Below are positions 51,001 to 57,000 of a stretch of DNA of 64,000 nucleotides, one piece after another. Each line of letters begins with the position of its first letter. The stretch's first letter is position 1. The stretch is taken from NCBI RefSeq assembly GCF_013167455.1, contig NZ_CP038328.1; one strand, given 5' to 3'. This DNA comes from Escherichia coli O157:H7. GTDB taxonomy: Bacteria; Pseudomonadota; Gammaproteobacteria; Enterobacterales; Enterobacteriaceae. Position numbers: made by a program.

Positions 51001-54000
51001 AGCGGCGCAAAAACTGGGGATTATCAATAGCAACGGCGGCGTCAGCGCCCTGGTCTCTGATAATTATGACGCAGCAGAGATGGCAAAGGGCGTTGGGATC
51101 TACATTTCTAACAGTGCTCACCCCGATACGGCGATGACGCTGGTTGGTCAACCGGGCATCGCGAAGTTAACCCCCGGAGGAAATGCAGCGGGGTGGTATC
51201 CTGTATTTGAAGGGGCAACATTAGAAGGTGCGACTCACCCCGGATACTCCAGCTATAGTTACTCTTTTATCGCCCGGTTGAAGAAACTGCCAAATCAGAC
51301 AGTCAGTGCGGGAAAAGTGCGGGCAACGGCTTATATATTGGTGAAAATGCAATGAAATCCGTTTTGCTGCTCTTAACCATCTTGTTCGTACAGTCAGTGG
51401 AAGCCGGCATCATGCCGGCTTCTTCACGGATTATTTATCGCGATGGCGATCGGGAAAAGACACTGATGCTGGTCAATACCAATGACTATCCGGTACTGGT
51501 GCAAAGTTGGGTAGATAATGGTGAAGGTTCCCCAGAAGCTGCTTCTCCCCCCTTTGTGGTGCTGCCACCGGTTTTCCGCCTGGCTGCGAGACGAACCCAG
51601 GGGTTGCGGATTATCTATAATCATGACCCACTTCCCCAGGATCGCGAATCTGCATTCTGGTTAAATCTTTATGAAATGCCGCCAGAAACTCCCCATCAAG
51701 ATCCCACACATTTAACGCTGGCAATGAATACGCAACTTAAAATCTTTTACAGGCCAAAATCTGTAACTATGACGCCCCAAGAAGCTATGCGTAAAATAAG
51801 TTGGCATCTGGGTAACGACGGCAGCAGTAGCTATATTGAGCTTAATAACCCAACACCACTGAATATCTCTTTCACCTCCATCAGCATTGGGGCTACAAAG
51901 GTGCAGCAAGAAAGCGATATGATGATAAAACCCTTCAGTCAACGACGGTACTGGTTAGCAAGTAATAACGTTAGTGGTGTGGTTGCGGCGACATATCTCG
52001 ATGATAATGGTGCACAGATAAAACAACAATTAGCGCAATAATGCTCTGAGTGGTATGTAAACTCATCGCGATGGTTCAACGCTAACGAATAACCACTATA
52101 CCCACCTGAAGTACCGGAAGTGGAGAAATGACAAAATCTCTCCACTCCATTTTCCAGTCAAAACACCTCAACGCAGCCAAAAATCGTTAACGAATTGAAT
52201 ATCCACCATCAATGACTAATAGTTGTCCATTGACATAATCTGAAGCGGCACTGGCGAGGAACACCATTGCGCCCATAAGATCCTGTGCCCTTCCCCAGCG
52301 TTGAGCCGGTATACGCCCTTTTATTAACTCTTTTATTTTAGGGTTATTATAAATAATAGCGGTCATTTCACTCACATAATATCCTGGGGCGATACCATTA
52401 ATCTGAATATTATATTCCGCAAAATCATCGGCATACGCTTTGGTCAGCCCCGCTAAAGCATGTTTAGTCGCCGCATACCCTGGCGACCAACGTCCCCCAT
52501 GAAATGACAATACGGAACACATATTAATAATTTTCCCTTTTCTTTGCGGGACAAATATATTCAATGCGGCCTGGCTCATATCGAATGCAGCATTCAGGTT
52601 GAGATTAATCATCGGATCCCAGTCGTTTCGATTGAAATCGATAGGACGATTAATGTTACACACGCCCGCGTTATTGACCAGAATATCTAACTGACCGAAA
52701 CGCTCCAGACACCTATTAATAATGGTGCATGATGCATCAGGTTTTGTTATGTCTATTGTCATAAACTCAACTTCAACGCCTTCATGAGTTAAATGCTTCA
52801 AATATCTATTATCAGGCTCTTTGATGTCAACCAACAATAGATTAGCCCCTGCTTTGGCCAGAGCCGAGCATAAGCCTCTCCCCAGCTCACCCGCGGCCCC
52901 AGTTACGATGGCCACCTTGTTATGTAATGAAAAAAAATCCAATGAAAAATCTTCAATAGAAAAGCTCATATCACACATTGCTCCTTATGAGTAAGTAATA
53001 TTTAAGGGATAATTTAAGTAATTTTTAGATTTCAATAAAAAAATATAAACATTAAAACTCAGCATGAATAATAAACATCAAATCTTATATACATTTAAGT
53101 AGTGATGTATCACGTAAAAATATAGTCATCATAGATGTTATGCAGTACGCACAAAAAAACAGACTGGATTTGCTTGCTGATCTATAATCTTTATCTAAAT
53201 TACTATTGGCGCTTTGGATAATAACATAAGCATATATTACCTCCTAGCAATAATAGATATAACCTCATATCAAGGTGTCACTGGTAAATAATCGGATAAA
53301 AGACAGTACCGGTCGGCACATAGAGCTTCTTCTATTTCACCAGAAGTGCACAGCAGGGAACTACCAATCACACGGTTAGTGTCATGGGTGGAGGATGCGT
53401 CCCGTTCTTTCCCTATAACGGGGATACGCAGTTTTTATCAGTACATGCAGAAAAACCCCTAATTCACATCACTGCAGAAAGCATTTAATAGAAATATACA
53501 TCGTTTAAGAATTTCAATTAAATCAAGATTATTCTTAAAAATCAGATAATTCAGATTTGCATTTTTAGGAAATTATACTATAGTGCACTTAATGTTCTTG
53601 CCTTTATTTTCTGAGTAATACTGGATTTGTAATACACAACTAAGGTATAAAATGTAATGATCTACATTATAAATGATGAAGTAAGATTCAACTCATCATC
53701 TAATAAGTTAACATCACTCCTTACATCAGAGGAAGTGATACTCACTTATCCTGCGGGAAAATGCTTAAAGTTACTTTTAGATAACGCTTATAGTGTCGTG
53801 TCACACAATCAATTCTTTGAAAAAGTCTGGAGCGATAGCAGTGCCGATGTCGCAACCAACACTTTATATCAAAATATATCGATGATAAGACGTTCTTTTC
53901 GTGAAATCAGCTCAGCGACGATATTTAATGATGTTATCAGAACGGTGCCCCGTAAAGGCTTCAAAATCAATGAAGAAATCAGCATAACTGTTCTCGACAA

Positions 54001-57000
54001 TAATCACAATGAGAATGAAAGTGTTGAGAGTGAAGAGAATGGTACCCACACTGAAAATATAAATAAAAATCACATTGCAAAAGGTATATTTACCACAAAG
54101 AATACATTACTTATAGTTTGTTTTTTTGCGGCATGGGGGATAGTGTATATATCTTCTTATTTTTTCGATATGGCTTTTCAAAGCAAATCCCACACTATAA
54201 AAAAAATAGATGCTTTCTCAAATTATGCTCAACACCCTACTCAGGAAGGATGCAGTTATTTCTATGATAATAAATACTTTAATTCCGTAGACATGTTATC
54301 ACCGATTATTGAAAAATTGCAGAAGATGGAAATTAACTGCAAAATACATCCTTACATTTACATTGCAACAAATGATAGCATGAGCGGATTTTATGCTTTC
54401 ACCTGTAGTCAGATGTTAAACTCTGAATCACCAAATAATTGCAACTCTCTCTATTATAAAGCGGAGTAATCATATGACTCAAAGATATTTTCTGTTTGCG
54501 GGAATAATTTTATGTGCTTTTATTGCAGCAATTCTGAGCCATATTGCGTTTCATCATGCCAATGAACCAGCAGAGCAAAACATATCATGTAATGCCCATG
54601 TTATTAATTTCACCGATCATACAAAAATGGATCAATATTTTTCGTTAAATATGATTTCTGAAAATAACACAGGAAACATGTATCTCACGGGCGCATACAC
54701 GGTAGATGGAAAAAAGATAGGCTTCATCCGCCGATATGTGAGTTTTACATACAAGAAATTCCGTGATACCGTTTACTTCACCACTGTTAAAATACAAAAA
54801 ATACAAAAAGATGATAACATTAGTGATGAAATCCTTGAAAATATCACTTCTGATTTTTTCATAAAAGTTGACACCTCAATTAATTTTTATGTTACACGTC
54901 AAAATGATTACAACTACGTATTCTCTACAGGCAGGACACCACGCTTCATATGTATTTCCCACTAACAGCATTGTTGCTCCTGGCGTTTGTCACCAGTTAA
55001 TAACCTTCTGATGGCTTTGTTTATATTTTAAGGCAATAAAAAACCATTCCAATATTGGTTAATTATTTATCTGTTTACATACCATTGATAAAACTCTGTC
55101 GCTTTCATTGGTTTTGCATATAAGTATCCCTGAACTAATGTCACGTTATTATGAATAAGATATTCCGCCTGGTGAGAGGTACTGACACCTTCTGCAATCG
55201 TTATCAAATTGAGTCGATTACTCAGCTTAATAATAATATCTAAAACAGGCGTTTCGTCTTCCGCTGTAGTGAGCGTGTCTATAAAGCTTTTATCTATTTT
55301 AAGATAATCAACAGACAACTTTTGCAGAAGGCCAAGGGAACAATATCCCGTGCCAAAATCATCAACTGCAAATTCACAGCCATGGCTCCTTAATTCATTT
55401 ATTTTCTGTAATGCATGATCAGTATCTTCAACCAGATTGCGTTCGGTAATCTCAAGGACAATGTTAAATTTATCAGATATTGCATTTTTTATATGTAAAA
55501 CATCAGCAACAAAATCAGGATGTGCAAGATGTTCAGCGGCAATATTTATCCCAAGGTGAAACGGCTTTTTCACTTTCCAGCTTTGTACATCCTGAATAAT
55601 CAGTTCAAAGAGATGCTTAGTTAACGGTATAATTAAATTTTCCTCTTCTGCAGCGCGGATAAAAACTACCGGAGATATATTTTTACCATCTTCGCGTTGC
55701 CAACGCATTAACGCCTCAACCCCCAGACACGCTTTGGTTGTCGTGTCACATACTGGTTGATAATGCACAGAAAATTCTCCGGATGACATTCCTTTCTTAA
55801 TTTCTTCTGCCAGGGACATTTTCCGAGATATCCAGCGCTGCCATAAGAAGTACAGGATAAAAGAAAGAAGAATAGATAATGGAAGAATGTAAAATACATT
55901 ACTAATGACATAGGGATATAATGAAATCATCGGCGTAGTAACTGTAAGACTAGCCTGACTGATCGCAGAATTAAAATCTTTTTTTAACATATATAACCTG
56001 TCATTATTATTTACACCACTAATAATTGCAGGCCCTTCAGTAAAGCGAAGAGAAAATGAATCATCATTCTCATCATCAAGAACATCCATCAGATCATAGA
56101 TATATCGTGACTCTACAATACTAAAAGCTGTCATATCATTCCCTATTGGCATAAGGAACACTATGGCTGTTTTACCTGGTACAAAACTTGTACCGCTAAT
56201 TGATACTATGCGTGATTCTTTATTTTTATTGTGAAAGCTCGTACCGTAAACATCGTTAACATTCATTTTTTTGAAACCGCTAACTGAAGAACATATTTGG
56301 AAATTATTTTCTATAAGACCCGTTGTTCGAACATAGGGGGTCAATGCTCCGTTAGCAATCAATTGTTCCAGGATATCTTTGCAGGGTTTCATCACCAGAA
56401 TAGAAGTAAGCTTTGTCGTATGTTTGACAATTTGCGTAACATTTTCAAGCTGTTTTAACAGAATACCGGCGGTAATTGTCGTATCTCGATTCATTTGAAA
56501 TACTGACATAGCAAACGACAGTAACCCCCCCAGAATGCCTGGTATTATAATGAGTACAAACATTTTTTTGTTGAATACCATACATGTTTCCCCACGCATC
56601 AGGGTGATGCAACCTAAGAAATTATAGTACAATTGCCAGTAAAAGCGGGTGATAGCAGACTGATCAATGATAAGCATTTAAGATCATATAGTACTATGAT
56701 ATTTCTGAAAATTGTTACGCATGTCTGCGAATAGCTATTTAGCGCTTACCAAAATCACCCGCTAAAATGCCGCTTTATGGTGACTCACAAAAATTCACCA
56801 CATCCCTCACAACCACCTTATTACGCCCGGTCTCTTTCGCCTCGTATAGTGCGTTATCAGCCAGTCGATAGATCTCATTCGGGTTTAACGCATTTCCCTG
56901 AGTCACAACAGCGCCAATACTAATCGTCACTTTTTGTGGTATAGCGTATTCAGGATTATCGCCAGTTAAACGCTCAACATTTTCCCGAATCCTTTCCGCT

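Follow-up and report, generated by a model that had tools for sequence, protein, structure and literature searches.

The grvA locus and its surroundings

The window analyzed was a 64,000-nt stretch of Escherichia coli O157:H7 DNA (contig NZ_CP038328.1). Its plus strand carries, as the preliminary description had proposed, two open reading frames with ATG starts, one encoding 270 aa (53657..54469) and one encoding 163 aa (54474..54965), separated by a 4-nt gap (TAA-tcat-ATG). The segment 53657-54965 was identical over 1309/1309 nt to grvA (ECs_1274, synonym z1531), whose product is a ToxR-family transmembrane transcription regulator, and ECs_1273 of strain Sakai, where the counterpart locus is O-island 47 (OI-47) of E. 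coli O157:H7. RefSeq labels the ECs_1273 product of Sakai 'FidL-like protein', and several sources also use the name FidL. Many O157:H7 genomes matched the segment at 100%. Since both genes are annotated in RefSeq, the segment is present in 410 of 5426 complete E. coli genomes, and the partner family comprises 79 representatives at the 50% clustering level (phmmer), both reading frames are real genes and not chance ORFs. The matches labelled 'plasmid' were a 212-kb record and a 4.9-Mb record, and both look like mislabelled chromosomal sequence. PADLOC detected no defence-system family, Rfam gave no credible match in 52000-56000, and NCBIfam gave a curated family for neither protein, every match lying far under its cut-off.

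The pair was found, in agreement with the preliminary description, between fimbrial and EAL/GGDEF genes. A chaperone-usher fimbrial operon of OI-47 (45417-52041) lies upstream; downstream, on the opposite strand, are a gene encoding a CSS-motif and EAL protein (vmpA/pdeT, 55067-56677) and, after it, the GGDEF gene dgcT/ycdT. The Sakai pair has the same context, from the OI-47 fimbrial cluster to vmpA/pdeT-ycdT.

When the intergenic region upstream of grvA was compared with that of a syntenic locus in another organism (L013), significant conservation was confined to a block at 53520..53553 (plus strand), located about 105-137 nt before the grvA ATG, at the same distance in both loci and with 29 of 34 nt shared. 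Inside this block lies an RcsAB-box-like site, TAAGAATAATCTTG (53524-53537, minus strand). The box pattern matched once in the window against 0.53 matches expected by chance; despite this expectation, the site was kept as a lead, and only as a lead, to a possible RcsB site because it coincides with the conserved block. According to reviews, RcsB binds the grvA promoter. A consensus scan also gave weak sigma-70 promoter-like hexamer pairs at 53550..53584 on the plus strand (9/12 matches), and in the promoter and terminator scan upstream of grvA the sites were no more numerous than in shuffled sequences.

Architecture of GrvA and its partner

GrvA is a predicted bitopic inner-membrane protein with a cytoplasmic winged helix, one transmembrane segment, and a small cysteine-rich periplasmic domain of ToxR-like fold. 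The winged-helix DNA-binding domain (aa 25-103, 53729..53965) matched Pfam Trans_reg_C (OmpR/PhoB winged helix) with E=3.7e-11, and the top solved-structure sequence match of aa 2-106 was the DNA-binding domain of Vibrio cholerae ToxR (8b4b, E~1e-6). Kyte-Doolittle windows of 19 residues exceeded 1.6 only at aa 149-170 (54101..54166), the predicted transmembrane helix. The remaining residues, aa 171-270 (54167..54466), form a periplasmic domain of beta2-alpha-beta3 order in which all four cysteines (199, 228, 250, and 262) are invariant. GrvA has in common with co-component transmembrane transcription regulators (coTTR) the winged-helix domain and, by hydropathy, the single transmembrane segment, and its periplasmic domain is modeled as a small alpha/beta domain with the ToxR/VtrA fold.

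A comparison with CadC, the pH/lysine sensor of E. coli, had also been suggested in the preliminary description. Both proteins are membrane-tethered winged-helix regulators of the ToxR family; however, GrvA scored 19.5 bits against the NCBIfam CadC model of 516 positions, whose cut-off is 400, its periplasmic domain has only about 100 aa, and it has a partner gene, which CadC lacks. Membership of GrvA in the CadC family was ruled out on these three grounds.

The partner protein, ECs_1273, has a single N-terminal transmembrane helix at aa 3-29 (54480..54560), identified by hydropathy and spanning the same residues in the AF2 model, followed by a periplasmic domain (aa 37-162, 54582..54959) predicted to fold as an eight-stranded lipocalin-like barrel. 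An adjacent, same-strand gene encoding such a helix and a barrel of this modeled kind is a further feature shared with coTTR systems. In the AF2 model, Cys39 and Cys160 are located on the first and last barrel strands (37-47 and 155-162); across 70 sequences C39 was invariant and C160 was at least 90% conserved. The partner belongs at the sequence level to the disulfide-containing FidL/YqeJ subfamily and has its conserved cysteine pair. Precomputed Pfam annotation of its 99%-identical cluster representative lists PF27292 (YqeJ_C) and PF15941 (FidL_like). A local Pfam-A scan of the partner itself gave no match, probably a library-version difference due to an older copy.

The nearest solved folds to the partner were VtrC and ToxS, with 4-14% identity in the structural alignments, so the structural comparison with ToxS suggested in the preliminary description came out in favor of a relationship. 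No TcpH chain was among the fold-search matches; the TcpH model was the least confident prediction of Kinch et al. (PMC9214523). The profile comparison with ToxR/ToxS held for one half only: the winged helix of GrvA matched ToxR, but the partner gave no match to ToxS or VtrC sequences in the PDB at E<=10, whether phmmer was run with the single sequence or with a 70-sequence profile, and what it returned was at chance level. Homology of the partner to ToxS and VtrC is thus suggested by fold and gene context, and the link is visible at the fold level only. The partner is not a ToxS orthologue, though it may be ToxS-like in its working. Our literature search found no experiment on ECs_1273 itself.

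Conservation of the pairing and relation to known systems

The arrangement of the two genes was conserved across the family. In all 12 complete pairs, the transcription factor gene was on the same strand as the partner gene and immediately upstream of it, with spacings of -62 to +5 nt, and in two truncated contigs (L005 and L012) an upstream ORF overlapped the partner gene. In the window, GGAG at 54462..54465 (plus strand), within the last grvA codons and 8 nt before the second ATG, would serve as the ribosome-binding site of the partner and may support coupled translation. The divergence of the periplasmic domain was correlated with that of the partner (Mantel r=0.59, p=2e-4), a correlation that linkage of two genes would produce in any case and that is no proof of contact. 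Complexes have been reported on co-expression of the periplasmic domains of YqeI/YqeJ and also for PsaE/PsaF (Kinch et al., PMC9214523).

One partner homologue (L007) has no upstream transcription factor gene, and the weak, sub-threshold resemblance of GrvA to the NCBIfam CadC and HilA/EilA models might likewise suggest that the two genes are merely neighbours, with GrvA acting alone, as CadC or another membrane regulator of the one-component type does, and having no relation to the 163-aa ORF. This reading conflicts with the complete loci and the two truncated contigs described above, with the CadC score and the short periplasmic domain of GrvA, and with the modeled fold of the partner, which matches VtrC and ToxS. 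Because the pairing is conserved, we regard it as close to refuted and extremely improbable.

The preliminary description had assigned the pair a ToxR-ToxS-type architecture, and this assignment is correct on the strength of the ToxR DNA-binding domain as best solved relative, the single transmembrane segment, and the consistent juxtaposition of the genes. It is already known: GrvA/FidL was listed by Kinch et al. in 2022 (PMC9214523) as a 'co-component' system of the VtrA/VtrC-ToxR/ToxS type, with an AlphaFold model of the complex, and a coTTR listing also includes it (PMC13042144). Since the pairing was published in 2022, it is not new, and the present analysis is an independent confirmation of that recognition, not a discovery. 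The GrvA/FidL-like system of OI-47 in Sakai is the locus itself and does not differ from it.

Among other known systems, the closest were YqeI/YqeJ (E. coli K-12 and EHEC, ETT2 region) and MarT/FidL (Salmonella SPI-3). GrvA was 32% identical to K-12 YqeI over its full length (E=2e-38), and the partner was 21% identical to YqeJ (BLASTP E=4e-17). Both systems showed full-length homology and the same gene order as the grvA pair, with all four periplasmic cysteines of the transcription factor and both partner cysteines aligned. They are, however, paralogues and not orthologues, they are located on different genomic islands, and their two genes overlap, whereas those of the grvA pair are separated by 4 nt. 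VtrA/VtrC, the bile-salt receptor of Vibrio parahaemolyticus (5kev, 5kew), had 8-10% sequence identity to the pair and no profile-level match, and VtrA lacks the conserved periplasmic disulfides (Kinch et al., PMC9214523). ToxR/ToxS of Vibrio (8alo, 8u2f, 6uue, 8b4b) is not orthologous and has a different regulon. The periplasmic model of GrvA has no counterpart of the C-terminal helix present in ToxR and VtrA, in agreement with Kinch et al. (PMC9214523).

Proposed mechanism, regulation, and candidate targets

We consider it very likely that the grvA operon of OI-47 encodes GrvA and a co-transcribed FidL/YqeJ-family partner that together form a co-component transmembrane regulator of the ToxR/ToxS-VtrA/VtrC superfamily. 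The steps proposed here draw on structures determined for the VtrA/VtrC and ToxR/ToxS complexes and on an AlphaFold model, available in the literature, that combines GrvA and FidL. The C-terminal strand of the GrvA periplasmic sheet would complete the open barrel of the partner, giving an obligate heterodimer. Each periplasmic domain would be stabilized by disulfides, that of the partner by Cys39-Cys160 and that of GrvA probably by two. A small hydrophobic gut ligand, such as a bile salt or another lipid, may bind in the barrel and alter how the complex oligomerizes or how stable it is, and this change would in turn alter promoter engagement by the membrane-tethered DNA-binding domains.

ToxS is known to protect ToxR, and TcpH to protect TcpP. 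The partner could similarly be mainly a stabilizer that shields the periplasmic domain of GrvA from proteolysis, with the signal entering through grvA transcription (RcsB, bicarbonate). The system is indeed known to receive its signal at the transcriptional level, via RcsB, and four invariant periplasmic cysteines fit a redox- or folding-sensitive domain in need of protection; on the other hand, the barrel fold is nearest to VtrC and ToxS, for which structures with bound bile salt have been solved (5kew, 8dml), and related families have a conserved putative lipid site (Kinch et al., PMC9214523). As the main role of the partner we find stabilization possible but unlikely; stabilizer and ligand-sensor roles are not mutually exclusive.

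Others have reported that RcsB activates grvA transcription and that GrvA, by lowering gadW/gadE, raises LEE expression and adherence (PMC10877973, PMC8565820, PMC6393859). Type III secretion reportedly increased when all of OI-47 was deleted, a result not easily reconciled with LEE activation by GrvA. Reviews describe the LEE and GAD effects as indirect, which leaves room for a different main direct target, the adjacent OI-47 fimbrial operon, with the LEE/GAD effects being secondary.

The preliminary description had likewise suggested that the pair might switch the neighbouring surface-structure genes. The genomic context of the family lends some weight to this tentative proposal, which we find possible but unlikely. 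In L013, the usher-fimbrial protein-chaperone-SDR-transcription factor-partner block is kept while the downstream flank differs; the pair in L015 immediately precedes an ECP pilus operon, and the family members in L009 and L010 stand beside EcpR-like genes. Family members thus recur beside pili, and also beside autotransporters (upstream of one in L004) and two-partner-secretion adhesins (divergent from a haemagglutinin gene in L014). The neighbouring gene misL is activated by MarT/FidL (PMC9214523), and a fimbrial target would parallel both MarT/FidL with misL and PsaE/PsaF with the psaA fimbriae. The synteny could, however, be explained by joint horizontal transfer instead of regulation, between the pair and the fimbrial operon lie a 678-nt spacer and an SDR gene in the opposite orientation, and the literature apart from the primary GrvA RNA-seq paper yielded no expression or binding data for the fimbrial genes. 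Across genera, the block of fimbrial operon, SDR gene, and pair is retained, but the pair diverges far faster (about 50% identity) than the structural genes (73-90%). CSS-EAL genes are also recurrent neighbours of family members. The stronger proposal, that the pair is a dedicated gut-signal switch of the OI-47 fimbriae and perhaps also of VmpA/PdeT, the CSS-EAL phosphodiesterase, and that the LEE/GAD effects lie downstream, is doubtful.

GrvA connects the sensing of envelope state and bicarbonate through Rcs with type III secretion and acid resistance in EHEC O157:H7. If the pair is read as a VtrA/VtrC-like receptor, EHEC may use it to detect a bile component or a lipid of the gut.

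Identity and island setting of the gene pair

The gene grvA (ECs_1274/z1531; 53657..54469, + strand; 270 aa) is followed on the same strand by a FidL-like partner gene (ECs_1273; 54474..54965; 163 aa). Both ORFs, and the 4-nt spacing claimed for them in the preliminary description, are present in the sequence, the junction reading TAA tcat ATG, and a GGAG motif lies 8 nt before the partner ATG, within the 3' end of grvA. All 1309 bases of 53657-54965 matched grvA and ECs_1273 of strain Sakai, whose RefSeq record shows equal-sized genes in the same surroundings, labelled grvA and "FidL-like protein"; public sources found by exact-sequence look-up likewise call the partner protein FidL. 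The segment is 100% identical in many E. coli O157:H7 chromosomes and is carried by 410 of 5426 complete E. coli genomes (O157:H7, O55:H7, O145, and some others). Its G+C content is 33.6%, against 45.5% across the whole window, a pattern typical of horizontally acquired DNA. The only "plasmid" records with the pair in the plasmid collection, NZ_CP124742.1 (212 kb, EDL933 assembly) and NZ_CP134663.1 (4.9 Mb), are probably chromosomal sequence filed under plasmid.

The flanks belong to O-island 47 and agree with the context first described, fimbrial genes lying to one side and EAL/GGDEF genes to the other; the fimbrial cluster is of the chaperone-usher type and is accompanied by an SDR gene. The EAL/GGDEF side carries, in order, the CSS-motif+EAL phosphodiesterase VmpA/PdeT (55067-56677, opposite strand), ycdT/dgcT, and pgaABCD; the island limits in the literature are z1528-z1556, and dgcT falls outside them. 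The remainder of the island (22128-44026) encodes a haemagglutinin/haemolysin-related protein of 1270 aa (40214-44026, minus strand) together with its ShlB-type activator (38506-40125); on the minus strand there is also a long series of genes for fatty-acid/polyketide-type biosynthesis, which the Sakai annotation gives as ACP, ketoreductase, dehydratase, and ketosynthase.

Architecture of GrvA and its partner

GrvA contains a Trans_reg_C winged-helix domain at residues 25-103 (Pfam, E=3.7e-11) and a single hydrophobic segment (residues 149-170). Among all solved structures, the top sequence match, over residues 2-106, was to the DNA-binding domain of V. cholerae ToxR (E~1e-6; 8b4b and others). 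The C-terminal ~100 residues could be aligned across 16 diverse relatives, in which F187, C199, C228, Y235, C250, and C262 are invariant, and the AlphaFold2 model of this domain showed a beta2-alpha-beta3 arrangement (pLDDT 80.3). YqeI of K-12 is 32% identical to GrvA over the full length (E=2e-38), and all four periplasmic cysteines align.

The partner matched no family in the local Pfam-A library, even at E<=10, or in NCBIfam. Precomputed Pfam labels on its 99%-identical cluster representative, and likewise on relatives, are PF27292 (YqeJ_C) and PF15941 (FidL_like), and the newer family seems to be absent from the local library. An exhaustive phmmer search yielded a family of 79 representatives, almost all of 150-165 aa, in whose alignment C39 shows no variation and conservation is 90% or higher at G67, G73, R87, F128, P156, and C160; YqeJ is 21% identical to the partner (E=4e-17). 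Searches against solved structures detected no sequence similarity, even with a 70-sequence profile. The AlphaFold2 model was very confident (pLDDT 94.8, pTM 0.80) and featured a TM helix at residues 3-29 followed by eight strands and one short helix. When this model was compared with the PDB using Foldseek, ranks 1-7 were filled by V. parahaemolyticus ToxS, V. cholerae ToxS (from the ToxR/ToxS heterodimer 8alo), and VtrC (5kev, 5kew, 8dml), so that a lack of structural similarity to ToxS-type partners, which would have refuted the proposal, is not what is seen.

The structural interpretation as a ToxR/ToxS-type pair is supported, and it is already published. Kinch et al. (PMC9214523) presented an AlphaFold complex model of GrvA and FidL with a VtrA/VtrC-like interface, remarked on the conserved disulfides, and listed GrvA/FidL among the few pairs with non-overlapping genes. 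A 2026 preprint (PMC13042144) places "GrvA-FidL from enterohemorrhagic E. coli" within the coTTR (co-component transmembrane transcription regulator) family. Reviews describe GrvA (z1531) as a ToxR-family regulator whose promoter is bound by RcsB; according to them, GrvA lowers gadE indirectly, by way of gadW, and so increases LEE expression and adherence, and during exponential phase it represses acid resistance (PMC10877973, PMC8565820, PMC6393859). In TUV93-0, type III secretion was reported to increase when all of OI-47 was deleted (PMC3378721). As GrvA is described as a positive LEE regulator, another gene of the island may act in the opposite direction. The literature search found no experiments on ECs_1273.

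What is shown here for the pair is its domain architecture, its folds, the conservation of its cysteines, and that of its operon arrangement; the solved VtrA/VtrC and ToxR/ToxS complexes suggest by analogy how it could work. A strand from the GrvA periplasmic sheet would complete the open barrel of the partner; a hydrophobic gut ligand bound in that barrel would change the stability or oligomerisation of the complex and, as a consequence, the way in which the tethered winged helix engages promoters. That the partner serves mainly to protect GrvA from proteolysis, a role that partly competes with ligand sensing, is a possibility to which we give a minor share of the probability.

Pairing across divergent loci

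For 12 divergent homologues of the partner, the surrounding genes were inspected. On nine contigs, a complete GrvA-like gene lies immediately upstream on the same strand; two other homologues are on short contigs in which the upstream ORF is truncated at the contig end. The last is an orphan (L007:3001-3483, 33% identical to the partner in the window), for which tblastn detected no GrvA-like transcription factor anywhere in the 6.5-kb locus; a CSS-EAL gene is convergent with it, and genes for PerC-like and GerE-type regulators lie close by. One of the nine contigs carries two different pairs in tandem within ~4 kb (L006:652-1969 and L006:3510-4800), recalling the adjoining STM0341/0342 and STM0344/0345 pairs of Salmonella. 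In the 12 complete pairs (homologue loci, window, and K-12 yqeIJ), spacing ranges from -62 to +5 nt, and partner divergence correlates with divergence of the periplasmic domain of the transcription factor (Mantel r=0.59, p=2e-4), a correlation that is consistent with co-evolution and that linkage alone would also predict.

Upstream region and neighbouring genes

The preliminary description proposed the pair as a switch for neighbouring surface-structure genes. The literature consulted gave no direct evidence of such regulation, and we consider it rather unlikely; the comparative context around GrvA-like pairs is nevertheless a real lead. In another organism (L013), the usher, a 444-aa fimbrial protein, the chaperone, the SDR gene (minus strand), the transcription factor, and the partner are kept (L013:1-6492 versus 47483-54965 of the window), whereas the downstream genes differ. 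The structural proteins are 73-90% identical and the transcription factor and partner only ~50%, which indicates a much higher rate of evolution in the pair than in the accompanying operon and fits the description of a fast-evolving cassette.

When the window and L013 are compared, the 678 nt upstream of grvA show significant conservation only at 53520-53553 (29/34 nt), about 105-137 nt ahead of the ATG in each locus. This block includes AGAT(T/A)ATTC as a direct repeat with 18-nt spacing and, at 53524-53537 on the minus strand, a sequence resembling the RcsAB-box consensus, a pattern that by itself is not above chance expectation in the window. Promoter-like hexamers near the block are weak. 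The block could correspond to the RcsB site described in the reviews, or it could serve autoregulation.

Surface-structure genes also adjoin other family members. In one case (L015:4265-10498), a MatB/EcpB/EcpC/EcpD (ECP pilus) operon directly follows a GrvA-like pair on the same strand, and at two loci (L009 and L010) the pair adjoins a gene for an EcpR-like regulator with an EcpR_N domain. Elsewhere, a cassette is divergent from a two-partner-secretion haemagglutinin (L014), a type of gene that O-island 47 also holds together with a ShlB-type activator, and a family member lies upstream of an autotransporter (L004). A CSS-EAL phosphodiesterase gene is next door in four loci, counting the window (L007:3486-5009, L008:1-675, and L010:204-1774 being the others), with only ~30% identity between the other proteins and VmpA/PdeT; DosC-like GGDEF genes occur close by at L008, L009, and L010. 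These sensor pairs may have a recurrent link to c-di-GMP turnover genes.
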